This document shows, one piece after another, positions 748 through 58,441 of a stretch of DNA of 64,000 nucleotides. Below the pieces are notes generated by a model. That model made no database searches, was not told the origin of the DNA, and saw only the letters and a list, made by a program, of their open reading frames with translations. The first letter of the stretch is position 1. Every line of letters begins with the position of its first letter. The stretch is from Eledone cirrhosa (taxonomy: Eukaryota): contig OZ024742.1 of assembly GCA_964016885.1 (NCBI GenBank), positions 352,966,001 to 353,030,000 on the forward strand, written 5' to 3'. The position numbers and the translations under genes were made by a program.

Positions 748-1653
748 TTAGCTGTATACTTTGTGAAATGTTTTATGGAATTTATGCAAGCAGATAGAAA
801 ACAAGTCAGTGCGTCTATTTATTATAGAATCTACATTAGAAATAATGGTAAATTTTTCATTTAGACAGATATTGCAAATTTTGGATAGAGAACTGTTCAA
901 GTATGCAGAAGAAACCTTCTTCCAAAAGATGCTATATTTAATACTTTTGTCTTTCAAGGACCATATGAGTTCTGAGAGAGCCGTATTGGTTCTTTTAAGC
1001 TTGTATTTAAAAGACGAATGATGGTTATAAAGACGAGCTTTAAAGGAGGTGGAAGTGGAGCCAAAATAGGTGAAGGAATTGGTGTCAGTTATAACTTTAC
1101 ATTCGTAAATTAAGTTTTTATCAAGACAATGGTTGTTGAGAGGACATTTATTTTTAATAGGGCAATTGCAATTGCGATTAGAGAGATTATTAATGAGTGA
1201 CCTAGTGTTATCTATAGAAGGAATTGGATTGGAGAAGTTATTTGCAATAGGAATAATAGTTTCTTGATTTAGAATGTGATTAAGAACATTTAGCGAAGTT
1301 GTGTTTGACGTTGTATTTGGGTTTGTAGAAATTAGCCTAGGGTCTACAATGACGTCGGGAGTACTATTACTATTATTATGATATTCAGTGTTGGAAGGAA
1401 GAGATTTAGTATTAAGTATTTTATTGTTGTGTTTAGAGATAACGTTGGAAATGTTGGAGGATGTAGAATAGGAACAGTTTATAGTGTGTTTGTTAAATAT
1501 TTTACTATAGATATGTGAGGGAGGGAAGCATTTATTTAAGGCACTAAATATTAATTTAGGAATATTGTTATTAATAGAGATGGAGAAAGGAGCATTGTAC
1601 AAGATTATGTTTTTTGTATCTAGGTATTTTATTAAAGTTATTGGAATGATCAT
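748..1653 (-). mobile_element. Penelope-like element 3' part: linker + Cys-rich region + GIY-YIG endonuclease (5'-truncated)
   Basis: ORF contains CNCPIKNKCPLNNHCLDKNLIYECKV...TYFGSTSTSFKARLYNH...TALSELIWSLK...CNICLNEK, the typical PLE Cys-rich linker plus GIY-YIG. Truncated near a (TA)n tract at ~1700. Confidence 0.85.
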
Positions 1654-1698
1654 GATTAATTATTCTACTGTAATTTCTTCTAGAATTTGTTTCTTCAC

Positions 1699-9623: not shown

Positions 9624-9666
9624 GTCACTGAAGAGATCACATAATGTGTGACGAAAGAACTTTGAC
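9624..9666 (+). ncRNA. Minimal type I hammerhead ribozyme in PLE pLTR
   Basis: gtca-CTGAAGA-g(a)tcacataatgtgtgac-GAAA-gaac-TT-tgac, with stem I gtca/tgac. Homologues at 9042-9077(-), ~21625-21668(-) and 31951-31992(-); the last has a covarying stem II gttgca/tgcaac. Confidence 0.7.
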
Positions 9667-25959: not shown

Positions 25960-27736
25960 TCTGGGTACCTCACATCTGAATATTTCTACAAAGAACATAC
26001 CCTTACCAAGCAGTAACACGTACTTAAATCTCCTTATTCAGAAATTGAATCGTTTCTTAAAAGATTGAGTTGGCGTGCCTATTATTTCGATAATCAGGAA
26101 AAAGAGGATAACAGACAGGATAAATTTGGGTTTAAAACTTATAATAACCCTCCGAGCAACCCAGTATTGCTACCCTTCGAAAATGGTGTCTTGGAACTCA
26201 TACGGAGTATAAACTTTCGCAAGAGGAGCAATTCCTTCCAGACATACCTGAAGAATAGCATTCATTTTATAAAGGATTCTAACGGCGTGCACGTCCAGTC
26301 CGACAACACTAGCAATCTATATCAAGTGGAACGCACTATATACTATCAACTGCTACATAATGCTGTAATTAAGGATTACCGGAAAACTAATCGGAGTGCC
26401 ATTAATGACATCAACGATGTTGGGTTTAAAATCACCTCTGAACTCAACATCCAGGACAGGGCTGAACATCTGGACTCTATTTTCCCCACCTTACCCTGAA
26501 GTATCACAAACTCAATTTCGCCAACAACCCGTCTATTCGGCTTATTAACCCTACGAAGTCCGATTTAGGTAGACTTAGTAAAAGGATTTTATATAGAAGT
26601 ATACCTGAAATTAGAAGCTTGGCCCCTCATGCACTGTGGAACAATTCTTTCGCGGTGATTGATTGGTTCAATGGCATATGCAACAAGGAACATTGCCATT
26701 TTATCCAATTCGACATCAATAATTACTACTCCTCCATCATTTTATCACTTCTCCTTAGAGCTATCAATTTAGCTAAATCGCTCACGGTGGTTAAGGATTT
26801 CGAAGTTGATGTTATCCTCAATGCCCGTAAGTCGGTGATTTTTCGAGGACTCTATTTGGATTAAATAATCTAATAGTACCCGATTCGACGTAAGTATGGG
26901 CGCCAGTGATTCGGCGGAGTTTACTGATCTTATCGGCCTTTTCCTTCTTTTCTCCATCAAGTAAAAATTCACCAATGTAAGGTCGAAACGCCCACGTCCC
27001 GTAGGGACTACATAGGGTTAACCCCAAGTAGCGTCTTTGCATGCACACCGATTCATTTTTTAACCCTATAAGAAGGAATACTACGTCACTCTCAACTTAT
27101 ATCTGGAGTCTAAAAGACAACCACACCCAATATAGGTTATACTGGGAGGACCTAGCCCTAGCTAGATCGTACAGCGGAAATAAAGAACTATCCAATCTTT
27201 GCACCGCTGAAGCCCTGGAAATACTCTAAACAAATGAGCTAAAAATCTGAGGCAATTTCTGCTTGTAAACATAAATTGCATAACACTTTTCTGTATTACA
27301 GCCCTTCATTATACCCTAACGGATAGTACGAACAGTACGCGGATAATTTAGGTCTTGATGTGGTAGCTAAGTATATTTATTGTTTATACCATTACTTATT
27401 TGTATAGGTAAGTATACCTTACCTGCATGTTTTATGAGGTACGTATATTTCTCGTACGTATATTTGCATGTATATGTTATGGGTGTATATATCATAATAT
27501 ATATACTGGTACATGTGTATATGGTTATGTGTATATGCGTATTGTGTGCGTACGCGTGTTCGCACCTATGTAAGGTGTGTGTATATGTGTACTTTGTTGT
27601 TTGTTTGACGTACGTTTAGTGAGCATATGTGTGTATATTTATATACGTTTATATAATTATATGTATACATACACGCACGCACGCACATACACGCACACAC
27701 ACGCACACACCCGTGCACACACACACACACACACGC

Positions 27737-30417: not shown

Positions 30418-30798
30418 AATTTTTAGCCTGCTAAATAAATAGCCGAACTTGTCAAGGGGTACTTCCTTATATGGGAAGATAGTAGTTGTGGAGAAGATTG
30501 GTCAACATTTGTTGTAAATACAAATGAGTCTATCATGGCATTTGGTGGGGGGTAGGTGTGGCTGACCTTGCCTGTAGAACAATGAAGGATCAAGCGTTGA
30601 AGCTGCAATCTACTTTCAACGCTTGAAAGGCACCACTCACTCCCTCATTGTTCTACAGGCAAGTTCAGCCACCCCTACCTGCCACCAAGTGCCATGATAG
30701 ACTTATTTGAGATTACAATTATCTCGACAAATACAATCTTCCCATATAAAGAAGTACCCCTTAACAATTTCGGCTATTTATTTACCAGGCTAAGAATT
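30418..30798. repeat. Imperfect fold-back inverted repeat (~170-bp arms) with internal hairpin
   Basis: ttagcctgctaaataaatagccg...gcctgtagaacaatga versus tcattgttctacaggc...cggctatttatttaccaggctaa. Internal tcaagcgttgaa/ttcaacgcttga at ~30590-30626. Confidence 0.8.
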
Positions 30799-30799
30799 A

Positions 30800-31686
30800 T
30801 AGGAGCAAATTTTGGAATAGAATAGAAAGAACTAGGAACAAGGCTAATAGAATAAACTCATGGTACGATAGCAATAAATACCAGAGTGTAATGTTCATCG
30901 ATACAACCCCTAGAGGTGAATTAGCTTACAAATTTAGAAGGGCCCTAAATAAACATAAACTCAATATTAAGATATTAGAAAGACCAGGTACCTCCGTAAA
31001 CACACTTATTAGCAATACATACCCTTTTCAAAGACCCTCATGTATAGATAAAAAATGTATAACCTGTAAAATAAGCCCCCATATTAACTGTAAAACTAGA
31101 AATGTAGTGTATAGCATAAGATGTACTGAAGGACAATGTAGAGATAAAAATATAGTGTACATAGGTGAGACAGCTCGTAGTGTAGGGGGACGGATAAATG
31201 AACACTGGCGAGACCTTCAAGATAGTAAAGAACCATCTGTACTCTACCAACATGCTAAAATAGAACACAAGGGTAAATTAGAGAACATAGAAATAAAAAT
31301 AGAATCTACACAAAGAAAAGACGCAATGTTTAGACAAATTACTGAGGCAATAAACATAAAAGAATTACAACCAAAATTAAATAGAAAATATAAGTGGAAC
31401 AGCAACATCACAACTTACAATTAAGGACAAAATGAAAACACACACACACATAGAACAAACAACCAACCAGTAACATGTAAATAAACAAATACATAAATGA
31501 ACATAAACACACAGAGACACCCGGATATGGCCCATGCGCAGACTGAGCACACAACACACACACAGAAACAAAATGGCGTAGGACAGAACAAAGGAGAGGC
31601 ACAGAAACAAAGAAAGCAATCCCCAGTCACTGAATAGGTCACAGAGTCACCTATGGTGCGTGTGTTTCTTATTGGCAACATGAACC

Positions 31687-31762: not shown

Positions 31763-34560
31763 TTGGGGAGGGTCATATGTGTGTAATATTGCCAGAATTA
31801 ATAACAGAACACACTCACTGTTTGGTTGGTTTTCGCTTCTGTGTCTTTTATATCGGTTAATTTAATTTATTCGGTCCTCAATGTTGTCATTGACTGACCA
31901 ACGGTCAAAAATACAGATACAATATAGACACAGACACATATATATCATTTATCAAAGTTCTTTCGTTGCACATCTGCAACAGCTTCAGTGGTGTTATTGT
32001 TTCCTCCCGTTGCATTGTATTTTCTATGCCATTTTATTTAGTCTGTTTATATATTTATTTATTTGTTTATATATTTATGTTTTTGTCTTCTTTGCTCATG
32101 CATTTGCGTGTGTGTATAGTGTTTTGTTTGATGTGTGTTCGTGATTGGGTGACTGTGTATTGGTTAATGTATTCTATCTTTACTATTGTGTGTTTATATG
32201 TGTTTGTTGTTATTGTGCTTGTGTATGTATTTATTTATTTATCTATTTATTTATTTATTTATGCTTCTCTTAGGTCAGTGTTGTTTGATTAAGTGTTGTT
32301 ATTCCATTTATTTTTTATGTTTAGCCTTGGCCTTCTAAGTTCTGTTTCACTGGCCTCTCTGATTTGCCTATCTGCTGGGTCATTTCTATGTGTAGATATT
32401 ATTCTAATTTCTATGTTGTCTATATTACCGTCGTGTTGTTGTCTGGCATGTTCTTGAGTACTGAACCGTTTTTTCGTCATTTTAGTTCTCCCCAGTGTTG
32501 GTCTATCCTTTCACCTATGCTACGAGCTGTGTCGCCTATGTATGTTGTTCTCATGTTTCTGCAAGTACCCTCTTTACATCTTATGCTATAGACTACGTTT
32601 CTAGTTTTACAGTTTATCCGGGGGTTTACCTTATATATGATACATTTCCTATTAATACAGTGGGTTTTCTTAAAAGGGTAGGTTTTGCTGATCAGGGATG
32701 TTATGGTGGTTCCTGGCGTTTCTCCACCTTAATCTTTAAGTGGGGTTTTCTCAGGGTCTTTCTACACTGGTTAGCTAATTTCCCTCCATGGGTAGCGTCC
32801 ATAAACATGACACTCTGATATCTCTGGTTGTTGTACCATAAGGTGGCTTTCCTTATCTTATGTCTAGCCCTATCTAAGCTATTCCATGATTTGCTCCTGT
32901 ATAATTGGCAAATTCCTTTCATATCCAGTTCTATGAGGGTCTTATACTTCTCCGTGGCTCCTTCGTATACTCTGGTGCTGTCTCTTTGCTTGTAGCCAGA
33001 AAACTGCATGCGGTTGATGAATTGTTGCATGTTTCTTTCCATTTCTGTTGGGACGCACATGCGGGACACGTTCTTCACCAATCGTACCAAGTCTGCGATC
33101 AGAATATTAAACTTAGCACTACTGGACATTGATGAGTTTTTGAGTATCAATTATTTGGAGGCCATGGGTTTAGCATAGTGTGAGTGGAGAATTTGGGCTC
33201 TCTCGTCTAGAGTGTTAATACAGAGTTCCTTGTCTAATACAGGTGGTCTATTGTTAGGGTGTTTGGAAGGGTAGTCGATAGTTACAGTTATTCTCTGGTG
33301 TATGGAATTAGCTATCTGCTGGATGCTTTCCATTGTGCTACGTTCCAAATCAAACTTGTTAGTGCTCTCTAGTGGAGATGTTCTCATAACTATATTGATA
33401 TCTTCTACGTAACGAGAGTACATGATGATGTCTATGGAGCTCTCATTAGGGAGATCTTTAAGTCTCCTTTCCCACCATACCATAAAAAGGTTGGCAACAT
33501 CACCGGCTATGCTGACGCCAATGGCTGCTCCCTCATTTTGGGTGTAGATCTTCTCGTTGAACTTGAATATGTGGCCCTTTAGGGTAGTTTTGATACTAGC
33601 CCCTATTGCATGTGCGACCATTTTTCTTACCTAATCATTGTTTTGGGAGGTCCGTATAGCTTTGGTCCACCCAATTCACCTTCCCATGGGAGTATTTTTA
33701 GCCATTGATGTTATGGTGGGAGATCTACCTCTTATGGGTCTACTGGTGCAGAAACGTCTAAGTCCATGCCTGTCTAGGTAGTCAGTGTCGTAGGCAAGTC
33801 TAAGTAGGAGGCCCAGTTCTTCTGTGTCGACGTCGCAGAACTCCACCTCTATCTCAATGATCATCTCCACACACGTTTCGACCACAAAATCAATGTTAAT
33901 GGATGGGTACAATGATACCACTCCATGCTGCCTATTATGCAGTTGGCTAGGTTCATGTTTTTGTTGCACCCACTGATTCTGCTGAGGAGGTCATCCGTAC
34001 TGTCACATACATCTGGGAACATCTTGATTATGCGGCGTATAACCATTGAAAGAAAGTAGGAGATCCTGTAGTTGCTAGCTATATTTGCTCCGCACACTGG
34101 TTTTGTTGGTGGTCTTGTTGTCGGGTCGTCGACTGTCTTGTGGTCATTGCAAAGCCCATACAAGGGTGGTATGCCATTTTTAGACGCCTGGAAGTTGGTG
34201 GCAGTGCGTCTGCTTGGCTTTAGGATGTCGGTCCACATCATCATGTGAGCGTTGATGATTTTTTCTCTCCCATCATGTATTTGCTGTGCAATTTCGCTCG
34301 TGTTTGTGATGTGGAGTTGTATAGCCTTGATGTAGTTCGGCAAGCTGTCTATTGACATCCTACCAGACTTATCCGTTGGTAGACATACTACCTCACCATC
34401 CCTTGTCCGCTGCTAACCAAACCTTCTACAGCCTTCCTCGCAACAGTGAGTGTGTTCTGTTATTAATTCTGGCAATATTACACAAATATGACGCTCTCAA
34501 GAATAACACATGTTTCGACACACGATTTCATATAAAAAACCTCGCAAAACTAATTCATCG
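31763..34560 (-). mobile_element. Degenerate PLE: RT ~33151-34360, linker, GIY-YIG ~32289-32700, pLTR 31763-32288, inverted pLTR piece ~34442-34560
   Basis: PPLYGLCNDHK...PTKPVCGA; VVSLYPSI; FKFNEKIYTQNEGAAIGVSIAGDVANLFM; YSRYVEDI; YIGDTARS. 34442-34500 is the reverse complement of 31763-31822. Confidence 0.9.
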
Positions 34561-35375: not shown

Positions 35376-38117
35376 ATATACGTATGTAGGGATCGAGGTT
35401 GCCTATGAGTTCTTCAGATGAGCGTCGTGATGAGGGCCTGCTGTGAACTATGAAATATGCAATCATATCTTGACACCCACACTATATCGCCATAACATCA
35501 GGAATACCGCTTTTTCCGGCCCGTTTTATTCTCCCATACTTACATATTACATGAAACATTACACATCTGCCATTAATTCATGTGATATTATAACGGCATG
35601 TTTTAGAGATACTTAACACAGAGGCCTAATATAATATATTACACGTAACGTACTGAAATCAAACAACTACATTTTATCACCTCAATTCTTTTATATTTAA
35701 CATATTTTATAAGGTTTTCATATAATGTTGAAATGTTACGTTTTAGTTCAAATTAAGTACATGTGTTATGAGCATATTACAGAACGCATATATTATATTG
35801 GAATAGCAAAACAAAACCACGATTTATAGGACATAATCTTATTAACATTTGTTTTGTTTTTTTCAAACCGTGAAACATTTAGCAGAGAAATAGTTTCATG
35901 ATCTACAGCATTTCGAACTTCTTCACTTATAATAAAACTTTCACCAAGAAATCAAAATGACATGAAATACAATTATTACTGCTTAACTGTATCAATATAT
36001 AGCAGAAAAGTCAGTGTTAACAACAAATCGAATAATTGAATAAGTATATTTTACATTCGCATAACGAAATTCCTTCATATGAAGAATTTAACATTTGTTG
36101 ACCTTTCTTTAATGCAATTTTTAACTGAAGATTGGAAATATCAAAGTAAATATTCGCGGGGGACAATATAATTGAAGGGAAAATAAATAACAAGAGAAAT
36201 GAAGTTATAGGAGAGCATAGAATAATTACAAATAAAAAGAGAATCAAGGAAATATTAAAAAAAAAAACAATTTCAAAGGACAACGAACGATGATGTGACT
36301 AAATAAATGATATGGAGATAACAGGCCTATTATATAGAAATACTTCGATAAGATCAAAGATAAAGAAGTGAAAGAAAAATAGAATTTCACGAGAGAAGGT
36401 ATTGAGCAAAGACGGACTACACAATATAATACAAATAATACAAATCATATACTAGAAATAATGTCTTCTAGAACTGAAGATGAGATGAGATAAATGTAAG
36501 CAGATATATAAATATCTAAACATATTACCGACGAGATAAAATTACCCACCTGAGGGTGTCAGGCTGCTCGTGTACGTAGGCGAAGTTTATTTCATGACGG
36601 GTGAACAACACAGTAAGCAACGGCGCGTTAATACTTATAATACTTAGAAAATCCCTTACATTTGTCAAATGGTGAGGGTCCATATTCAATACCGTTTCAT
36701 CTAACTCAATTCTGGCACATAGCCAAGCACAAGTGTGGGTCCCAATCGGTGCGCTGCTTAAATTGAAGCGATACGTCTTATCATCCACATCATGTGTGGG
36801 CCACACACATGTGGGTGGTAGAATTCATTTTTAGTCATTTAGCATGTATTCTCCCGACTGAACATAATTTTCTTGTGGATAACTTTTACTAGCCTACTGT
36901 TTGGTGTATTACATTGTCTCTGAGGTTATACAGTATTTTATATTGGTTTGTTATTCTCTAAAGGCACGAGTATAATTTAAGAAATATAATGTATTCAAAC
37001 ATATGTTACACACGTAAATGATATGTCAGCTACTTTTATATAATGTATATGTATGTGCCTGTGTGTGTGTGTATACACATACAACAGCTTGGAATATGAG
37101 CACTTTAGCAACAGTGAACTATATACAGAAGTGACAGACATAGCTGCATCTCAGATTGAAGACCACATCAACACCACTTGGACGGATATCTGCAGACGTA
37201 GACAACTCCCCAAGACATATCAAAATACCCTCAGCACCAGAAACAACGGACTACCAGCATTCTACGACCTCATTAAAAACCACAAAACACGTGTTAATTT
37301 ATGGATTAGACCAATTGTCTCGAGTATAGAAGAGCCCCTCTATAACATCTCCTGGTTCCTCTCCCAGATCCTTAACACCATTCGTACTTCTTTTCCTGGA
37401 CATATCAGAAGCTCCAACGAACTCATACAAAGACTACATCAATTACAATCTAACCAACCTAAACTCAACAGATATGCCTTTAGCCTCGATGTTGTCTCCC
37501 CATACACAACAATACCTACTCATTCAGCGGTCAACCTAGTGATGAGGGCATCATTTCATACAACCTATATTGCTTCGGCCTCACTCCACAAGACATATAT
37601 CAGCTTCTATCCGTAATCATAGTAAATAACTATTTCACTTTCCACCACCACACATACAAGCAATAGGCCTACCCATGGGGTCCAGTCTTTGATGCTTTCT
37701 AGCCATCAACTGTATGAACCAACTGGAACGTCGAGCGCTCAACACCTGCCACTCCTGTGTTATCTTCACCCGATACAAAGAATATATACTCATCCTCACG
37801 TCATCCCGTGAAGAGGTTGACAATATCTACAGCATTTTCAAACACAGATAACAACATACGATTTACAGATAACTACCCAATAAAAATGGTTCCTTGTCTC
37901 TGCTGGATTACAACTTAGAATAATAGTCGAAGGTACTTTATACACCAACTTCTATAAGAAAGCTGGCCAGCAGAGACCTATTTGTACATTATAGATCAGC
38001 CCTTCCGTTGGTGCTAAAACTGGATGTCCTATACGGAATAAATGTAGGAAGACAAATGATCAGATCCCTAAAACTGCACACTTCATAGATGTACTGAAGC
38101 CAAACGGTTACCCAACG

Positions 38118-39255
38118 TCGAACACTCCACACTCAACACCACTCAAACACTCCACACTCAGCACCAATCGAACACTCCACACTCAGCACCAATCGAACAC
38201 TCCACTCTCAGCACCAATCGAACACTCCACACTCAACACCAATCGAACACTCCACACTCAGCACCAATCTAACACTCCACTCTCAGCACCAATCGAACAC
38301 TCCACATCAGCACCAATCGAACACTCCACACTCAGCACCAATCGAACACTCCACACTCAGCACCCATCGAACACTCCACACTCAGCACCAATCGAATACT
38401 CCACACTCAGAACCACTCGAACACTCCACACTCAGCACCAATCGAACACTCCACACTCAGCACCACTCGAACACTCCACACTCAGCACCAATCGAACACT
38501 CCACACTCAACACCACTCAAACACTCCACACTCAGCACCAATCGAACACTCCGCACTCAGCACCCATCGAACACTCCACACTCAATACCACTCAAACACT
38601 CCACATTCAGCACCAATCGAACACTCCACACTCAGCACCAATCGAACACTCGACACTCAACACCACTCACACACTCCACACTCAGCACCAATCGAACACT
38701 CCACGCTCAGCACCAATCGAACACTCCACACTCAGAACCACTCGAACACTCCACACTCAGCACCAATCGAACACTCCACACTCAGAACTACTCGAACACT
38801 CCACACTCAGAACCACTCGAACACTCCACACTCAGCACCAATCGAACACTCCACACTCAGCACCAATCGAACACTCCACACTCAGAACCACTCGAACACT
38901 CCACACTCAGAACCACTCGAACACTCCACACTCAGCACCAATCGAACACTCCACACTCAGCACCAATCGAACACTCCACACTCAACACCACTCAAACACT
39001 CCACACTCAGCACCAATCGAACACTCCCCACTCAGTACCATTCGAACACTCCACACTCAGCACCACTCGAATACTACATACTCAGCACCACTCGAATACT
39101 GCATACTCAGCACCACTCGAACACTCCACGCTCAACCCCACTCGAACACTCTACACTCAGCCCCACTCGAACACTCCACACTCAGCACCACTCGAACACT
39201 CCACGCTGAGCACCACTCGAACACTCCACGCTGAGCACCACTCGAACACTCCACA
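38118..39255 (+). repeat. Minisatellite, 25-bp unit (a/c)tcgaacactccacactcagcacca, ~45 copies
   Basis: Direct reading; period 25 (e.g. 38341, 38366, 38391). No unique spacers. Confidence 0.95.
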
Positions 39256-39659
39256 TCCGCGTTAAAGAACATCTCACACACGTTCATCCTCATTAAAAAA
39301 ACACATTGACAAATGTAGAAACATCAACCAACATATTACCGTTACCATTAAAGCCAGTGATAGAACTATGGGCAACTTAAGAATTAAGGAAGACTTACTC
39401 ATACGTCGTCTCAACCTGCATATAAATAATAGATTAGAACTCAGCACACATTACTTAACATAAAAAGACACAGCCACAGGTACACAAACTAAACATCTCA
39501 TACAGAAAAAAAAGAGAATTGATTTCACGAAATACTATACTGGAAATAGACTTCAGTCTCTTGAAGTGCGAAATAAATAACGCTTAAAAACGACTTTCAA
39601 ATCAAAATTTAATGCCAAAGAGAGGAATGTGTAACAGAATCCACTGGAAGTTCCGTAAA

Positions 39660-39695
39660 CCCTAAAGAAGGGACTTTTAGGTCCCGAAATATTGG
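39660..39695 (+). ncRNA. Decayed minimal hammerhead motif in PLE 3' UTR
   Basis: cc-CTaAAGA-a-gggac-ttttag-gtccc-GAAA-tatt-gg. One core mismatch, stem III rudimentary. Confidence 0.4.
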
Positions 39696-39805
39696 ACAGT
39701 AAAACGAACAACAAAAACACAATACAAAAATTAGCAAGACACTTACTTTTCGTTGCCTCATCTCATAGAAAATTGTGCATTGTTTAGCCTTCTAGCACCT
39801 TCTAT

Positions 39806-40775
<970 letters not shown>

Positions 40776-46197: not shown

Positions 46198-46533
46198 TAG
46201 TCATGTAATAAACAACATAAGATCATTATTTCATTTACCAGTGGTTTCTTGAAAGCTAACAAATTTGCTTTCATTCATCAGAATGAAAATATCCTGGTGT
46301 ATTTATCGAAAGTGGATTTGCAAAACAAAAATATAAGAAATATGAAAGTGAGGCTGGGGGAAGAAGACGAAATGGGGAAAAAGAATAATAAATATAAAGG
46401 TATATAAACACACACGCACACACACACACACGCACATACACACACGCACACACACATATACATACACGCACGCGCACACACACACGCACACACACACACA
46501 CGCACACACACGGATATATATATATATATATAT

Positions 46534-46594
<61 letters not shown>

Positions 46595-46838
46595 TACATA
46601 TACATATATATTTATATATACGTATATAACTACACATACACATACACATACATACACAAACACACTTCTTAATCCAGCCTCACTTTAATATTTCTTATAT
46701 TTTTTTGTTTTGCAAATCCACTTTCAATAAATACAGCAGGATTTTTTTTCATTCTGATGAATGAAAGCAAATTTGTTTGCTTTCAAGAAACCACTGGTAA
46801 ATGAAATAATTATCTTATGTTGTTTATTACATAACTAA
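46198..46838. repeat. Inverted repeat (~165-bp arms 46198-46365 / 46665-46838) around CA/TA microsatellites
   Basis: atgtaataaacaacataagat...aagtgaggctgg versus ccagcctcacttt...atcttatgttgtttattacat. Confidence 0.85.
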
Positions 46839-48495: not shown

Positions 48496-51400
48496 TTTCA
48501 TTTATTGGCAACATTACAGATGCCAGGCACCCAGTCTCGGTCTCTTCTTGACCTAGGACTGCAACTCAGTCAAAGAAACGAGCTGCGGAAAGTCCCGTCT
48601 GACAAACGGCGACCACACCTGTTCACCGTTTAGGCAGAATATATGGAGATGCCGCAGCCTCAGCGCGTGCCTGCGCATCATTAACCACGGCATGCCCAGC
48701 CCTCCACGTAGAGGGTGCTGGCAGCAGATGGACCGCCTCACCAGCGCAACCTGACCCCTCCACAATAATTTGAAGAGGAGCCGCTCCAAGATGGCGAGGC
48801 GCGAACGGGGGCAAGGGACGACAGTCAGACGGTAGAAGATGACGAACGCGATGTACGCGTTTGCCACCCTCGCCCGACCTTTCAGTGATAGCTTCATCCC
48901 AGCCCATTTCTGGGTGAGACTGACTGCGCTGCCTGTCACCTCGTCCTAATGCTTATCCACCTGTAGGTCTGGCCCGAACCAAACCGCTAGCAACTTTACC
49001 GGTCCGTCCCTCCAGCGCCAAACGACGCTGTTGGACGGAATAACTTGCCTCTCCAGGGGCCGAGTGGCAAGCCCACTTACTTTTCCGGGTTAAGTTTTGC
49101 TCCCGTCAACCTTTTATATTCCTCAAAAAAGTTGCCGAACACCTCGATTTCTGAGGTGTCCGACACCATCACGGTGATGTCGTCCGCATAAGCCGACACA
49201 GCCTTTCCTCGTCCCGGTTCGAGCGGGATGCCCTGCAACAGCTCCAGCTTCCGCAGTAAAGGCTCGAGAGTCACTACGTAAAGAAGGGAGGAGAGAGGGC
49301 ACCCTTGGCGGACCGATCGGGAGACCTGAAACGGTTCTGAGAGGTGGCCATTAATTTGACCATCGCGCAGGTGCCGCTGTGCATTGCAGCTATCCAGCTT
49401 ATGAAGACGGGGCCGAAGCCAGCCGCCTTGACGACAGCCTCCAGGTACCGATGGTCCACCGTATGGAATGCTTTCGATTGATCTAAATTGATCAGAGCCC
49501 CACCGAAGCCAGGTTTACAACCTACCCTCTATATGATGTATCGCATTAGGTGGAAGTTGTCTTCTATGGACCTGGTTGGGATTGCGCCTCCCCAACCAAA
49601 TTCCCGACGACAAGCGCCAACCTATTCGCTAACACCCTGGCCAAAATCTTAAACTCTGTGTTCAGCAGAGTTATGGGCCTGAAATTGTCTAATGTGTCCC
49701 TCTTGTTCTCGTCTTTCCTTATCTTCGTCACTACGCCCCGGCTCACAGAACTGGCAATATTCCCGTATTGCTGCCAGTTGCAGTAGAGGGCTTCAAGGAG
49801 ATTGGAGAACAAGTATGGCATATTTACATAAAGCTCGTAGGGCAGACCATCTAAACCGGGTGACTTGCGCCTCATGCAGCCGACAAGGGCATCCTGAATC
49901 TCGGCAGAAGTAATTGGGCTTTTGCAGCGCCCAGCGTCAGCCGTCGAGAGTTGCAGCAAGCCATCGAGGTAGGAACTGAAGTCCGCCACCTTCTCTGACC
50001 CGCCACTTACCCTGAACAGCCGAGCAAAATGTTGGCGAAAGGCCTCACACATCCTCTTGGAATCGCTCAGCTCGTGCCCGTCTCGGTCCGTCAAAGACCG
50101 AATCGTGGTTTTATTTCCACGCTGCGCTTCTGCCACGCGGGCCCATCGAACAGCTTTGGTTCCCTCGTTTCTCAGAGCACGCGCCTTAGCGGTGACAATG
50201 CAATCTTCCTGTTTCGCATTGAAGAAATGGTCTAATGCCATTCTCGCCGCTAGCACATCAGTTACAAAACCACTACCAATAGCCTCGTCTAACTTATCTA
50301 CCAACTCCCCCTCCTTTCTATTTTTCTCTAATGCTACTTCTTTGCTAAACTCTATCGACATTACTCTAATCTCTCTTTTCAGAGCCCCCCACCATCTATT
50401 GTTGACGACTCCTCCTGTCAACTTTTTCTCAACTAAATTGTTGACCTGGTCCCTGTAAGCCTTACGTGCGGAAATATCATGTTTAGCTTCCAGTAACCAT
50501 GTCTAACCTACGCGTCTTATCAAGGTCAACCATACAGATCACAAACTTGGGATCTGAATAGGCGTTCGTTTCAAAACGTGGACAGCTCACACAATTTCTG
50601 TCTATTTTCCTAATGAATATCCTCTCTATATACGATCTAGATGACCATATGCGGTTAGCCCCGGTCCACACTGGCGCATTAGGGAAATCTAGTCAGTACC
50701 TGTCAGACAGTTGGAACTGGCTGATCAGGTTCTTGAGGCTTTTGCACCGCCCGCTCCTATCGGATACTCCCACACAGTCCCAGCGTGGGTTTAAGATGCC
50801 GTTCCAGACCCCGTTAACAGTAAAGGGCGAGACGTACCCAGAAAGTCTTCCAGACGTCTAAAGAAGTCCGGCCGTCCTGCCCAAGTAGGAGCATAGACGG
50901 CCACCAGTCTGAAGGCACCACCTTCATTATTGTTCACGTCCAGGACCACTAACTTCCCGTCCGGGTCCCGGAAGATCGACCTTACCTCGAGATCCAGGCC
51001 TTTCCTAAACAGCACTGCCACCCCGCCTCCCATTCCCGGGCGGCTAACAGATGCAAACATCTGATAGTCGTCGAAAATGTGGGCTAGTGCGCGAGTGTCG
51101 GAAATCCTAGTCTCGCTGACTGCAATTATATCCATTTCTATAGACCTGAGTCGTTGAGCAGGTGACCCTGCTTCCAAGACGATCCCAGGCCTCGAACATT
51201 TAAACATCCTACTCTTAATATGGCAATGTTGGCAGGTTAAAAGAGAGAGAGGAAAGGTTTACTTACCTTCCGGGCTCTTGTGAAGGTCGGGTTGTTGGAC
51301 CTCCATAGTTGGTGGGGTTTCTTTTGGGAACCCCTTTAAAAGTCTTGAAGTTGGTTTTACGTTCGGGGTTCCCACGTCCCGAGAAAAGCTGTCTCGTATT

Positions 51401-52550
51401 TATTTGTATAATTCGATCGATATTCGCACCAGAACCAAATCTTCCGGCACGCGAAATGTGCTCGATTTAAAAATGTTCCCCTCTTTTTGTATATTTTCAC
51501 TTCGTGCTACGAGGGCCATCAATTCCTTGTTGACCCTCATGACGAGCACGAAGTTTTCTATGTTTTGTTGGTGTGGCTGTGGTGGTGATGGTTTTGGTGG
51601 CGTTGTTTCGGTTGTATCTGTGTTTGTTGTGAGTGCGGTGTCTGTGGTTTCAGATTTTTTGTGTATATTTGTTCTTGCGTCTGTTTTAGTTGTTTGCGTG
51701 TGGGGGATTCTGGTGAACGTGATGGTGGTGTTGATGTTGGTGTTATTGGAGAGATGTTTGCGTGGGTTGTGTCTGCGTTTTTCATTGAGGGTGATTTTGT
51801 GCTTTGTTGAGTTTTTTTTTTCTTTTTGTGTTTCCTTTTTTGGATTTTGGGGGATTTGGGTTTTCCCTCATCTTCACTACTGGTAGACGAGGGGTCTGTG
51901 TCTGTAAGTGTGTCTGTATGTATGTTTATGGTTTTATTGGTGTGTGTATTTTGTGGGGGAGGGATAATTGGACAGCTTTCCCCGTTTTCCGCATGGATGG
52001 TCAATGTTGGTGGTGGTCTTTCTATTGGTATTGTTGTTGGTGGTTTTGCCGGTGCTGGTGTTGGTCGTGGTCCTCGCGCCGGCGTCAGCAGCAGTGGAGC
52101 CTTTCGACCCCTTGCCTCTTTCAGCAGTTGAGGGCAGAAGGCTCGTAAATTGTTTTTTTCCCACAAACAAAACACTGCGGCCTTTTAACTTCGGTCATAA
52201 TGTCAATGACCGTCCCATTCTGAAAGCGGATGTGGTCCGGGATTTGTCTTCACATTCTCGGGCCTGATCTGGCGAAGGATCTCCAGGTCAACTCCGGACC
52301 AGTCCTCTCTGGCCGTTCTGGTCACTTCTATAGGAACGGTATCCGTCCCCTCCACGATCTCACATCCCAGAAGCCACCATATGTCAAGTCCTGGTGGGAT
52401 TCTGGGAATGCGGAGACGGCCGTTCTTTTTCCCATGTGGTTTTGCAAGGAGTCATAGCGTGGGCTTCTGACTTGAACAACACCGAAATGGTGCCGTACTG
52501 TCTAACCCTATCTATATATTCGGCGTTTTCTCTGATGCACCTCAGCGCGA
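48495..52550 (-). mobile_element. Tx1/L1-clade LINE pseudogene: ORF1 (zinc knuckle) ~52550-51250, APE ~51210-50480, RT ~50420-48550; most of the C-terminus deleted
   Basis: CFVCGK...LRAFCP; MDIIAVSETR, GGGVAVLF, VAVYAP; KSPGLDGLPYELY, FRPITLLNTEFKILARVLANRL, DQSKAF, RQGCPLSPLLY, AYADDITV. 3' AATAAA then (TTA)n. Confidence 0.9.
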
Positions 52551-52566
52551 ATAATAATAATAATAA

Positions 52567-53650
52567 TAGGAAGCTATTGACTATCTACAACATGTTCCAC
52601 AAGAGGAGTGATGTCGATAGACTCTACCTAAGGAGATCTGAGGGTGGAAGAGGTCTTATCAGCATAGAGGACTGTGTTCAGATGGAGAAAAACAACCTAT
52701 ACAAATACGTGACCTATAGTAAGGAGCCAATGCTCAGAACTGTACTGAAGGAGGGGACAGTAGGCCAGGGGATGTCCAAGGAGGAAATAACATCAGGGAG
52801 GAAGAGCAGCCTTAAGGGAAAATCCCTTCATAGTACCTTCTTTGAGAAAACTGAATTTAGAGATCCACAGACATGGCACTGGTTGAGAAGAGGAGACCTC
52901 AAAAAGGCTACAGAAGGAATGCTAATGGCTGCGCAGGAGCAGGCCCTCTAAACGAAGTGGTTGAAGCACCATATTTACAAGGAGGAGGTTAGCCCACTGT
53001 GCAGGATCTGTGGAGAGAGAGAAGAGACTGTGGCTCACATTGTGTCCGAGTGTAAACACCTAGCCCAGACCCACTATAAGGGCTGGAGACACGATGTGAT
53101 GGGCAGGGTGATCCACTGGCACCTGTGCAAAGTAAACAATTTACCACATTCTGAGAAATGGTATGAGCATAGGCCAGAGGCGGTGATGGAGAACAATCAG
53201 GTGAAGGTGCTGTGGGATTTTAGGATACAGACGGACAAAAAACTGGAACACAATAGACCTGACCTGGTGGTTGTGGACAAAGAAAAAAGATGGTGCCCGA
53301 TTGTGGATATGGCCTGCCCGTTCGACACGAGAGTGCAAGAGAAGGAGAGGGATAAAATTAACCGATACCAGGACCTAAAGAGGGAGGTGAAAAGGATTTG
53401 GAACTGCCATGAAGTCAAAGTGATCCCGATTGTCATAGGCGCACTGGGGACTATCTCCAAAAGTTTCCAGGGATGGTTAAAGAAAATCGGCCCCTTCACG
53501 CTTTTTGGAACGCTTCAAAAGGCATGCTTGCTTGGAACAGCAAGAACACTCCGGTACGTCCTGAATATCTGAGGCTGCAGGTAGTGGCTTGATATTCAAT
53601 CCAACGGACTTTCCAGTTAACCAACATCAATGACTGAGATTCAAGGAATA
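52567..53650 (+). mobile_element. 5'-truncated R4/Dong-like retrotransposon in a (TAA)n tract
   Basis: Near-identical to 57169-58250. CRICGEREETVAHIVSEC, RHD, RPDLVVVD, KERDKINRY. Premature stop at 52949-52951. (TAA)n on both sides. Confidence 0.92.
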
Positions 53651-53655
53651 ACAAC

Positions 53656-53696
<41 letters not shown>

Positions 53697-54781
53697 GGGA
53701 AGAAGACGCACGAGGTGACGGAGGTCATGAAATCGCTCCCGTAAGTTTTGAATTTTTAACATATTTAAATCATTTCTGAAATAACAACTCTTAGTACAAA
53801 TGCTACGTAAAGCACCCGGCTTGAGCCCCCAAAAAATGGGGCCCAAAATATATTGTTATAAGGCTCAAATATTCAAATATTCAACTTTGTATTGTACACT
53901 GTATATCCTAAAAAGAAAATGGCTATAAATGGAAGAAGAACCCCCCCCCCCCTCCTCTCCTCTGTCTACACTATATAGAACAGCCAAACTCACCAACACC
54001 AGAAACTAGATACACCACCCACCCCATCACCTGTGTCCACTAAACACAACAGCCAGATAACGGCATTTTCACCACCACCGCTCACTACGGCCATCATTAC
54101 CACCATTATCCCATCACCGCCGCCACCACCCCTTCACTCCTCCACTGCTACCACCGCTACAGCACCATCACTACAGTAATACGGTCACATCACCGCCACC
54201 ACTGCCTCGGTATCGACATCACCACCACCACTGTCTCAGTATCGCTACCGCCGCCAGTCTCCCATATTTGCCAGCTGGCTGCTGCCACCACATTATAGAA
54301 TCCCTACTGCCAAAAAAAGAGGAAGGCATCAAAATATATAGATAGACTCAAAAGAAAAAATAAAAAAGAAAAAACGAACAACAAAACCAAAGCAGCACAG
54401 CAACAACAGCAAAAAACGAGAAAAGCAAACAGAGAAAAACAAAAATAAAAAAAAAAAAAAAACGTAAAGAAAATAAGAATGAAGAGGGAAGCAGGCGGAC
54501 GGACAGAGAAGAGGGGGGGGGGGGGAACTAAAACTTAAAAAACAAAAACTAAGTCAGACATTCGAACACTACATTACAATGAAACTTATGCTTATTCATT
54601 TTTGGGGCCCTTTCTGCCTGTGTGTTTGTTTGTTTATGTGTGTTCGTATACAGCGTGGTGATAATACCACACAAGGGCCAAGTGGAATGGCGGATCCACA
54701 GATGTATATGTAACCATACATTCGCCAATCCTCGATAAGAGTGTTTAAATATCGAACATAAACAGTTCGAATAACGGTGAA

Positions 54782-57700
54782 ATGGAGACTAGAACGTCAT
54801 GTGACAGACTCTCACCCAACAGGTGCCCCCTGGCTCAGCAGCAGGAACCTGACTGTCAACCAAATACTGCTGATGTTGTAGGAAGGAGAAGAAGGAAAGG
54901 GGCCAGAACCAACTGGACGAAAGAATTGAATAGAACTGTTATGCAATGTTACCTGAAAAGTAACCCCAAGGAGAGGGGCTACAGGAGACGGATGCATAAC
55001 ATCTGGAACGAGATTGGTTTATTTAAATTAGATGAACAAAAATTGGCCGGGCAGGCTCGGGTAATAAGAACTAATGGGTGGATAAGCGAGCTGGAACTGG
55101 AGGAACTGAGCAGAGAGAATGGCTTGGAGATGGCGGGTGTAGTATGCCAGACAAGCGAGCCAGTGGGAAATGAAGGTGAAGAGGTCCTGAGAACGGAGGA
55201 ACCACCCGAAGCAGACAATGATCTGAATACTGAGATAAATAATACCTGGAACAGAGATACGGCCACTGAGGAGATGAATGCTGACCGGCTAGGACAAGAT
55301 TCGGTTGACATCCTAAATTTAGTGGTAGATGAATTGAACAATGATAGTGGGAGACCTATGAACCTAAGATTTGTAGACAGGAAAAAGTTAAAAGAAACAA
55401 CAGCTAAGGTAAACAAAGTCATCCCATACCTTGAGGCGAGGAGCCTTCACCAGTGCAACAATATCCTCAAAGCAACAGCAAATACGGTGAGGAAACTACT
55501 TGGTATAAAAGCGAGAGGAAACAACAGACAAGAAAGAGCAGAGCCGTGGTGGAAGAAGCGACTGAGTGGGCAAATCGGGGAAATGAGAAATGACATAGGA
55601 AAGCTTGAGTCACTACTGAATGGGACACTAAAAAACATAGGCACTAAAAATAGACTGGAAATAAAATACAAAACTAGGAGGAAAAAGCTAAATATTATCA
55701 TAGAGGAACTGAAGCAACGCATTGTAGCAAAGAGTGCAAAAATCAGGCGATACGAGAACAGAGTCAGTCAGTATAAACAGAACCGCATGTTCGACAACAA
55801 CCAGAAGATGCTGTTTGGACAGCTTGAGGGGAAATAAAGAGGCAACGACTTGATCCCTGGGGCGGAGCAAACTAAAACATTCTGGAGAGGAATATGGGAG
55901 CAGGATGTTAGACATAATGTCCAGGCTGGGCGGATTGAGACAGTACAGAGGGAGATAGGTGAGCAGGCACAACAACAAACTGATTTGAGTATCACAGTTG
56001 AAACTCTTAAGGGGCAGGCCAAAAAACAAACCAACTGGAAATCACCAGGCCCAGATGGTGTGCAGGGGTATTGGATTAAACATTTAACATCCCTCCACCC
56101 GAAGCTGACGGCCATGTTCAATGACTGCTTGGTGTCGGGTGAGGTGCCAGAGTGGTTGACAAAAGGTACCACAGTTCTGATAATGAAAGACCGAATCAAG
56201 GGTAATGATGTTACAAACTATAGACCTATCACATGTCTGTCCGTAATGTGGAAACTGTTGACGAGCATTGTGTCTGAGGAAATCTACCATCACCTCCACA
56301 CAAACAACTTGTTACCGGACGAACAGAAAGGATTCCGAAAGAAGTCACGTGGTACAAAGGACCAGTTACTTATTGATAAGATGGTAATGGGGTATTGCAG
56401 GAGGAGACACACTGATCTTGCCATGGGATGGATAGACTACAAAAATGAATTTGACATGGTGCCTAATTCTTGGATCACCAAAAGCCTGGAGATCTTCAGG
56501 GTGGCAGACAATATTAGACAGTTGCTGGGCAGGAGTATGGGGTCCTGGGAGACAGAGTTGACATCAACTGGAGTATCCTTGGGAAGCGTGAAGATCAAGA
56601 GAGGTATCTTCCAGGGAGATAGCCTGTCCCCTCTGTTGTTTGTCCTTGCCCTGATGCCCTTGACCATTATTCTGCGAAAAGTGAGAGCAGGATACAAGTT
56701 GGGAAGGGGAGAGCTTACCATCAATCACCTCCTCTTCATGGACGATCTTAAGCTCTTCGGGAAAAGTGAGAAGGAGTTGGATGTGCTTGTTGACACTGTC
56801 CGTATTTTCAGCAATGATATATGTATGCAGTTTGGTATAGGTAAATGTGGAGTCATTGTGATGAGGAGGGGTAGGTTGAGCAGAAGTAACGGGATCCAGA
56901 TACCAACAGGTGAAATGATAAAGGAAATTGACTCTGAGGAAGGATACAAGTATTTGGGCGTTCTGGAGGCTGATGGCATAAAGAACAAAAAAATGAAGGA
57001 ATTGTTAAGAACTGAATACATTCGGAGAATAAGGAGCGTATTGAAGTCACATCTGAACAGCAGAAATGCCATAAGCGCAGTAAATTCCCGAGCTGTGTCT
57101 TTTATTAGGTACAGTACGGGAATTCTGAGATGGAATGTTGCTGAACAAAAAGAAATGGATAGGAAGACTAGGAAGCTATTGACTATCTACAACAAGTTCC
57201 ACAAGAGGAGTGATGTCGATAGACTCTACCTAAGGAGATCTGAGGGTGGAAGAGGTCTTATCAGCATAGAGGACTGTGTTCAGATGGAGAAAAACAACCT
57301 ATACAAATACGTGACCTATAGTAAGGAGCCAATGCTCAGAACTGTACTGAAGGAGGGGACATTAGGCCAGGGGATGTCCAAGGAGGAAATAACATCAAGG
57401 ATGAAGAGCAGCCTTAAGGGAAAATCCCTTCATAGTACCTTCTTTGAGAAAACTGAATTTAGAGATCCAGAGACATGGAACTGGTTGAGAAGAGGAGACC
57501 TCAAAAAGGCTCCAGAAGGAATGCTAATGGCTGCGCAGGAGCAGGCCCTCAAAACGAAGTGGTTGAAGCACCATATTTACAAGGAGGAGGCTAGCCCACT
57601 GTGCAGGATCTGTGGAGAGAGAGAGGAGACTGTGGCTCACATTGTGTCCGAGTGTAAACACCTAGCCCAGACCCACTATAAGGGCTGGAGACACGATGTG

Positions 57701-58174
57701 ATGGGCAGGGCGATCAACTGGCACCTGTGCAAAGTAAACAATTTACCACATTCTGAGAAATGGTATGAGCATAGGCCAGAGGCGGTGATGGAGAACAATC
57801 AGGTGAAGGTGCTGTGGGATTTTAGGATACAGACGGACAAAATACTGGAACACAATACACCTGACCTGGTGGTTGTGGACAAAGAAAAAAGATCGTGTCT
57901 GATTGTGGATGTGGCCTGCCCGTTCGACACGAGAGTGCAAGAGAAGGAGAGGGAGAAAATTAACCGATACCAGGACCTAAAGTGGGAGGTGAAAAGGATT
58001 TGGAACTGCCATGAAGTCAAAGTGATCCCGATTGTCATAGGCGCACTGGGGACTATCTCCAAAAGTTTCCAGGGATGGTTAAAGAAAATCGGCCCCTTCA
58101 CGCTTTTTGGAACGCTTCAAAAGGCATGCTTGCTTGGAACAGCAAGAACCCTCCGATACGTCCTGAATATCTGA
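54782..58174 (+). pseudogene. R4/Dong-clade non-LTR retrotransposon ORF (RT + CCHC + restriction-like endonuclease), one in-frame stop at 55835-55837
   Basis: ORFs 54782-55837 and 55850-58174 are in the same frame. Motifs KSPGPDGV, YRPITCL, GIFQGDSLSPLLF, LFMDDLKL, YKYLG, CRIC..HIVSEC, RHD, PDLVVVD, DVACP. 3' end at ~58250 followed by (CAA)(TAA)n(GAA)n. Confidence 0.93.
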
Positions 58175-58249
58175 GGCTGCAGGTAGTGGCTTGATATTCA
58201 ATCCAACGGACTTTCCAGTTAACCAACATCAATGACTGAGATTCAAGGA

Positions 58250-58263
58250 ATAACAACAACAAC

Positions 58264-58356
<93 letters not shown>

Positions 58357-58441
58357 AAGAAGAAGAAGAAGAAGAAGAAGAAGAAGAAGAAGAAGAAGAA
58401 GAAGAAGAAGAAGAAGAAGAAGAAGAAGAAGAAGAAGAAGA
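58250..58441. repeat. (CAA)n(TAA)n(GAA)n microsatellite
   Basis: Direct reading. Confidence 0.95.

Follow-up and report, generated by a model that had tools for sequence, protein, structure and literature searches.

In the human genome, 7,276 of 31,472 minisatellites and satellites are reported to derive from transposable elements (TEs) and to grow by local duplication (PMC3389668). The array described here resembles the Alu-, L1- and ERV-derived minisatellites as they are characterized in that survey: the unit originates from the host element, a terminal unit is incomplete, growth proceeds by local duplication and the start is left unexplained; the initiation models proposed there cover only 6% of the TE-derived cases (PMC3389668). 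It differs from them in its host, a Penelope-like element (PLE), in a unit made of endonuclease codons and in an internal deletion that coincides with the array. With 45 units, it is also long compared to Alu-derived arrays, for which means of about 2.3-2.4 units are given (PMC3389668). A 25-bp minisatellite with blocks of variant units has been described as human MSY1, and the present array shares with it the unit length, the tens of copies, variant types defined by base substitutions and a distinct terminal block (PMC2599865). Compared to MSY1, the array has traits of its own, namely a GC content of 52%, a unit without a hairpin and interspersed variants in its interior.

The reverse transcriptases (RTs) of PLEs are sister to TERT (PMC8557442). 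Repeat addition by telomerase and DRT10 is reported to need an A-B-A' alignment repeat and a boundary stem (PMC12632851). The likeness of these systems to the present case lies in the related RT lineage and in tandem copies of a short RT-associated RNA segment, the difference in the copies themselves, each of which matches the template in telomerase and DRT10, whereas the units of the array descend from each other (PMC12632851). With Nematis-like PLEs carrying a C-terminal endonuclease (EN+) and a short Cys linker, the host element has in common an RT followed by a GIY-YIG domain in one ORF, the motifs YIG-STT-R..EH and LRIKE..N and an adjoining (TA)n tract (PMC8557442). Unlike these elements, the host copy is dead, 5'-truncated and devoid of the linker. 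A literature search covering titles and the openings of abstracts, with few subscription journals included, turned up neither a report of a minisatellite internal to a PLE nor one of a PLE RT that adds repeats.

All positions given below refer to the window, i.e. the whole stretch of 64 kb of DNA that was analysed. A sequence-only reading of the locus had proposed that the array records reiterative reverse transcription of one segment and had named slippage or unequal exchange as the alternative. The array is a real feature with ordinary minisatellite behaviour, lying next to an internal deletion of a dead PLE.

The host element

Judged by its protein relatives, the host of the array is a dead, 5'-truncated PLE with a C-terminal endonuclease (Table 1). 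A HMMER search with an RT ORF of 164 aa returned 894 proteins at E<=0.001, the best of which (P0001) could be aligned over 350 aa at 50% identity. Within this alignment (37077-38120), 176 of 350 residues are identical while seven frameshifts and one stop interrupt the frame, and the catalytic RYIDD of P0001 reads RYKEY in the host copy. P0001 has Pfam matches to RVT_1 (E 5e-13) and, weakly, to GIY-YIG (E 6e-4); both domains were matched in all five relatives scanned. The RT region closes with NGYPT at 38103-38117, directly before the first partial unit, and P0001 can be aligned again beyond the array, where 37 of 75 residues of the endonuclease tail (39234-39457) are identical. The 894 RT relatives and the alignment of P0001 on both sides of the array uphold the original description of the host as a PLE with an RT followed by an endonuclease. 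No closer member of the family turned up, and none of the 236 candidates from a word-index search for longer proteins, made with the RT ORF, qualified.

The GIY-YIG endonuclease of EN+ PLEs is marked by CCHH residues. In the 3' half of the endonuclease, the residues R..EH, KH..C, LRIKE and N are kept and one frameshift is present near 39275. The repeat unit originates from the first 22 nt of this half (39234-39255). The 5' half with two Cys residues and YIG is deleted in the host copy and known from relatives alone. Among these, the best reach approximately 50-57% protein identity to the host. The closest named one is P0224 (UniRef A0A0L8GYC4, aa 1-272), an Octopus bimaculoides gene model whose 57% identity to the endonuclease tail over 56 aa hints at the kin of the host and should be taken as a pointer only. 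P0224 and P0245 (UniRef A0A0L8GX06) are both Octopus bimaculoides models in which about 270 aa of PLE sequence (RT end and endonuclease) are fused to a PF05672 protein, presumably the MAP7 domain; the fusion is either a gene-model artefact or an exonisation. In the relatives, a short Cys linker of the form C-x4-C-x6/7-C was detected in 53 of 60 proteins. By eye, and not by a tree, this linker appears to resemble that of Nematis-like elements, though without the CxxC present in most Nematis rows of Fig. S2 of PMC8557442.

Hammerhead features of PLEs have been described (PMC4209133). The 3' part of the element comprises a degenerate hammerhead-like stretch at ~39660-39695 with CTAAAGA, a 5-bp stem (GGGAC/GTCCC), GAAA and a short palindrome. 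This reading is based on what we take to be the hammerhead core motif; the fold predicted for the stretch (z -1.2 to -1.7) is not that of a hammerhead. At gathering score, the whole window is devoid of Rfam matches, and the seven weak matches obtained in 36300-39900 are at chance level. An upstream copy of the element's 3' end was not found within the window, and the best 25 long inverted repeats by length comprised microsatellites alone. The (TC)n(TA)n tract that borders the element is a plausible insertion target, linker-bearing PLEs being reported to prefer (TA)n (PMC8557442). Downstream of the element, two similar blocks of ~120 bp (40000-40120 and 40540-40660, by eye) each adjoin (TC)n(TA)n. 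Just upstream of it, at 36633-36809 (-), there is a candidate inverted and heavily decayed PLE RT fragment (E about 0.001 with a small database).

Table 1. Parts of the host element and of the array, in window positions
Feature	Positions	Strand	Remarks
5'-truncated decayed PLE RT region	37077..38117	+	frameshift-aware alignment to P0001; ends NGYPT
Partial first unit (unit positions 9-25)	38118..38134	+	abuts NGYPT; deletion junction
Minisatellite interior, units 2-37	38135..39033	+	interspersed haplotypes a, B, C and one seed-type unit
3' block, units 38-45	39034..39233	+	none of type a, B or C; putative old array edge
Native 3' half of GIY-YIG endonuclease	39234..39463	+	STTRTLHIRVKEHL ... 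LRIKE ... INNRLEL, stop 39461-39463
Probable 3' UTR/pLTR of the element	39464..39805	+	holds degenerate hammerhead-like stretch
(TC)n(TA)n microsatellite at the element's 3' end	39806..39899	.	Tandem Repeats Finder

The array and its source

Tandem Repeats Finder reported a period-25 array at 38118-39255 (45.6 copies, 91% matches, score 1793), in agreement with the approximately 45 copies of a 25-mer noticed earlier between the RT end and the endonuclease. The head-to-tail unit of 25 bp lies inside the minisatellite size class of 10-100 bp. Allowing up to two mismatches, a 14-nt core has 45 matches in the window, 44 of them within the array, while shuffled sequences lead to an expectation of 0.35. 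Phased on the endonuclease codons, the array consists of a partial unit of 17 nt, 44 complete units (43 of 25 nt and one of 24 nt) and a native end of 22 nt.

The last unit reads STTRTLHIRVKEHL, which is identical at 10 of 14 positions to STTRPLHVHIKEHL of P0224, and then continues as the endonuclease tail; the unit frame is the endonuclease reading frame of this relative. Thus, the seamless transition seen by the sequence-only reading is correct, and so is the derivation of the unit from GIY-YIG coding sequence, as far as the 22 nt representing the codons STTRTLH are concerned. The remaining 3 nt form a non-native junction. In the complete units, C occupies position 23 in 42 of 44 and T position 24 in 44 of 44, the units ending CACACTC or CACGCT(C/G)-like, whereas the native copy ends CACATCC. 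The unit is therefore partly non-native. The step from CACATCC to CACACTC corresponds either to a 24-mer with one inserted base or to two substitutions. The G codon of YIG is not a possible source of the junction, which would therefore not represent native upstream sequence. For a minisatellite to count as TE-derived, its unit has to overlap the host TE or resemble it by at least 70%; here, three positions separate the majority unit from the native 25 nt, and the array lies inside the element.

The STTRTLH stretch is CA-rich and contains internal ACTC/CAC sub-repeats. The unit has no stable fold on either strand, and hairpin-driven instability was dismissed on this ground. Open frames of 330-404 aa run through the array because the unit is free of stops in every plus-strand frame; a coding role was dismissed for this reason, the sole Pfam match of these frames being sub-threshold and 15 aa long. 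The majority 25-mer had no exact match in the GTDB prokaryotic genomes, a result of little bearing on a eukaryote.

Descent of the units

The sequence of unit 15 was used as the inferred seed, with C at unit position 8 taken as ancestral because it encodes the conserved T (of 60 relatives, 12 read STT and 31 read STI at this site). Relative to this seed, 12 shared and 12 singleton variants are present. Only one of the 44 complete units is identical to it (38459-38483), and identical twins exist for 25 of the 44 units, all of them derived haplotypes. Haplotype a (A at position 8) comprises 24 units, haplotype B (A at positions 2 and 11) five and haplotype C (A at position 3) six. The variants are linked: 2A and 11A occur together (p=2e-5), 3A is never joined with 8A (p=0.005), and the overall linkage with allele counts fixed is significant as well (p=0.002, 5000 column permutations). 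Three of the six variants that are confined to two units are located in adjacent units (p=0.0017). Neighbours in the 3' block share variants (units 39/40, 42/43 and 44/45), and the last nine units all fall outside types a, B and C (about 1e-8, noticed post hoc). Since variants are linked and shared by neighbours and the 3' block is distinct, units were copied from units, DNA to DNA, by local duplication.

A polarity of variants, with mostly ccaatcg in the 5' part and ccactcg in the 3' part, had been noted previously. The polarity is real (Mann-Whitney test on position 8, p=0.0014), but the array is divided into three parts rather than two: position 8 is A in ten units and C in one among units 2-12, A in 14 and C in 11 among units 13-37, and never A among units 38-46 (eight C, one T). 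Instead of supporting the RT model, this polarity speaks against it because independent copies of one RNA would not inherit each other's changes. At the 5' edge, interior-type units are found, B followed by a, and no old edge. The four-gamete test failed for 6 of 66 variant pairs, which matches the expectation for conversion or recurrent change. Higher-order blocks (aaB three times, aaCC twice) were persuasive by eye and were dropped as evidence after permutation tests (p=0.08-0.19).

When independent copying was simulated under uniform or gamma-1 rates, not one of 3000 runs arrived at a variant shared by 24 units; the fraction of runs doing so rose to 0.4% with gamma 0.5 and to 6% with gamma 0.2. 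At gamma 0.2, the independent-copy model thus survives the allele-count test (p=0.06), so that the case against it rests on linkage and position, two signals that are independent of site rates.

Neither of the two testable hallmarks of a telomerase-type repeat-addition product was found in the array. The first is the independent copying of each unit from one template, which is at odds with the single seed-identical unit, the linked haplotypes and the positional block. The second is an alignment repeat. No run of at least three matches occurs at spacings of 20-29 from the native start, in a copy that is ~6% decayed and has lost the native sequence 5' of the unit, where a boundary stem would lie; the best match is 2 nt at spacing 24, and at spacing 25 there is none at the start. 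The lack of an alignment repeat in the surviving native sequence leaves a flanking-repeat slippage model unsupported, too, which is also the situation of most TE-derived repeats (PMC3389668).

Age of the units and of the host copy

Among 77 conserved RT columns, 14 are changed in the host, compared to a median of 6% for the intact relatives (103 of 114 long relatives were used; 11 were left out for low identity or short overlap). This implies a nucleotide decay of about 6% with a range of 2-12%, which is a rough value as the reference proteins are only 52% identical at best. The host has accumulated eight frameshifts in 1243 bp and the array one indel in 1138 bp (p=0.027), where about seven would be expected at the host's rate. 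The mean nearest-neighbour distance of the units is 2.0% overall, 1.6% in the interior and 4% in the 3' block. The present units are younger than the host insertion, and this comparison of unit divergence with host divergence counts against an array laid down by the RT in one run. On the other hand, the mean distance of the units from the inferred seed is 6.6%. As this value falls in the host's 2-12%, the root of the array may be as old as the PLE insertion; this is the principal counter-evidence to an origin after insertion and leaves a seed made at insertion with some probability.

The internal deletion

Between YP+1 and STT, the host lacks 104 aa compared to P0001 and 106 aa compared to P0224. 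In the relatives, this gap has a median of 105 aa (range 100-134; both motifs were found in 60 of 245 fetched proteins). The lost stretch takes in the last part of the RT region as well as the Cys linker and the VY...YIG core of the GIY-YIG domain, about 315 bp in total, while 1116 bp were gained. As had been claimed, the array stands in for the linker and the first half of GIY-YIG, about 105 codons being absent exactly there.

The first unit begins only at position 9, yet the STT codons are present in every complete unit. Due to the survival of these codons, the deletion did not precede the first duplication. The interior-type units at the 5' edge and the old appearance of the 3' edge suggest that a deletion ending inside a unit took the old 5' edge of the array at a late stage; polar growth at the 5' end would give the same picture. 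A TCG microhomology at the deletion junction is possible because S holds the second place after YP more often than any other residue does (12 of 60 relatives).

The junction sequence of the unit recurs in the element over 10 nt at 37230 and over 9 nt at 39439. The joint probability of the two recurrences, which were noticed post hoc, is 0.008 in a protein-preserving shuffle and 0.0005 in a free codon shuffle; for the best single match of at least 10 nt it is 0.09. The recurrent sequence could have been templated by an RT jump or by DNA end-joining, which makes templated junctions too, or it could be due to chance.

Discussion

The array is probably a TE-derived minisatellite which originated in a dead PLE after insertion and was turned over at the DNA level. 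The insertion of a 5'-truncated PLE with a C-terminal endonuclease beside the (TA)n tract came first, and the subsequent decay of this copy is evident from its frameshifts and altered residues. Subsequently, the STTRTLH stretch may have been duplicated once, with a junction change of 1-2 nt that was passed to nearly all later units. As the variant structure shows, the array then grew and turned over by unit-from-unit copying (slippage, unequal sister exchange or conversion): point mutations that had arisen in single units spread to others and gave haplotypes a, B and C, whereas units of the 3' edge were spared homogenisation. Finally, a deletion ending within a unit might have removed about 315 bp of the element together with the old 5' edge. 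Slippage or unequal exchange, put forward earlier as the alternative to reverse transcription, is the better fit since the array consists of units derived from each other that are younger than the host and poorer in indels. The origin of the first duplication is left unexplained by this reading, as no flanking direct repeat of 5-10 bp that could have seeded slippage is visible.

A seed made at insertion is rather unlikely. In this case, one or a few backward jumps of the PLE RT over the STT segment, made in the course of reverse transcription or integration, and a further jump of about 315 nt upstream would have produced a short tandem and the deletion at once; ordinary DNA turnover would have enlarged and overwritten the tandem later. 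The exact coincidence of deletion and array, the root-to-tip distance of 6.6%, which agrees with the host age, and the two further occurrences of the non-native junction within the element, of a kind that a template switch could produce, are in line with this scenario. However, the 5' edge consists of derived a/B units and not of seed-type units, DNA end-joining would make such templated junctions equally, each junction match taken alone is weak, and a 1-nt insertion is simpler. The RT of R2 is reported to jump templates (PMC8857657), and retrotransposition may start some TE-derived repeats (PMC3389668); on the other hand, a term search of the main text of a paper on PLEs in vitro yielded neither 'template jump' nor 'template switch' (PMC11167929). 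It is similarly doubtful that seed and deletion arose together because the PLE RT jumped after one to a few rounds of re-priming on a short internal segment of its RNA, perhaps via CTCAGCAC, a motif with two further occurrences in the element; DNA turnover would then have obscured the record.

It is likewise rather unlikely that the array was inherited, i.e. that deletion and minisatellite arose in a parental non-autonomous PLE derivative which was mobilised in trans and varied locally afterwards. The element retains its 3' end and the hammerhead-like stretch, and a root as old as the host would be expected here as well; the internal repeats of SVA or LTR12 offer a parallel, and LTR12 and L1PA are described as TE families with internal repeats (PMC3389668). 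Yet neither a second array nor another copy of the family exists within the 64-kb window, none of 23 candidate proteins of 137-438 aa matches the array frame, and the host has kept about 1 kb of decayed RT, which would be atypical of a compact non-autonomous family.

That a single telomerase-like run laid down all ~45 units from a fixed RNA segment and was followed by a jump, is very improbable. The geometry of the locus with a partial first unit, a seamless last unit and an adjoining deletion fits such a run, the template strand is C/A-rich, and the kinship of PLE RTs with TERT would favour it. Nevertheless, the record of reiterative reverse transcription was not borne out: variants are inherited, linked and clustered by position, indels are too few for the host's rate, the junction of the complete units deviates from the surviving template, and an A-B-A' alignment repeat is missing. 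The unit genealogy already contradicts this scenario unless all original units were replaced later, which makes it equivalent to a seed at insertion. That the array is an artefact of assembly or sequencing, or an unrelated satellite that entered the element, can practically be dismissed: assemblies can mis-size tandem arrays, but the variants among the units are structured, the unit is in frame with, and in 10 of 14 aa identical to, the endonuclease of a relative, and assembly noise is unlikely because, elsewhere in the window, an ORF of 778 codons is intact and a 1130-bp duplicate is free of gaps.

The locus shows the birth of a minisatellite in one place, with its source codons, an old edge, a genealogy of units and a rough host clock. 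The array may be usable as a VNTR marker. Should arrays prove to be enriched, genome-wide, at the deletion or truncation junctions of PLE copies, it would become possible to test directly whether PLE RTs synthesize DNA reiteratively. If seeding by the RT were true and recurrent, such arrays would be fossils of rudimentary repeat addition in a lineage sister to telomerase and would reveal a birth route for minisatellites.

Other repeats in the window

The window is AT-rich and rich in microsatellites, and it contains many retroelement remnants. PLE-like remnants without a Pfam match are located at 748-1659 (-) and 26017-26499 (+). The former includes a CxCX5C linker before a GIY-YIG-like stretch, a motif assigned to the Hydra clade (PMC8557442). 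Further PLE fragments are an endonuclease end with a Cys linker at 30765-31424 (+) and an RT region at 32480-34511 (-), matched by relatives at E 5e-21 and 2e-14, respectively, with the match to the former covering 30780-31403; Tandem Repeats Finder detected no tandem array inside either of them. Hammerhead-core-like patterns were counted at 11 sites in 5404-46790, compared to 4.0 expected, a number that was reached in 0 of 100 shuffles. None of these sites has an Rfam match at gathering score. One of them (9628-9656) has a clean inner stem, and the sites at 46245-46281 (-) and 46754-46790 (+) are near-identical inverted copies.

At 49564-51886 (-), the first part of an RT accompanies a match to AP endonucleases (Exo_endo_phos, E 8e-7) in a remnant that we take to be L1/Tx1-like. 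A non-LTR element with an RT (RVT_1, E 2e-21) occupies 52334-58441 (+). It also exhibits a zinc motif, and its C-terminus is of the restriction-like endonuclease type; presumably, it resembles the microsatellite-targeting elements R4/Dong. Its intact ORF of 778 codons extends from 55838 to 58174. The 3' part of this element (1130 bp) is duplicated upstream at 97.9% identity (52567-53696 vs 57169-58298), and both copies end in (AAT)n, which in the second is followed by (AAG)n.
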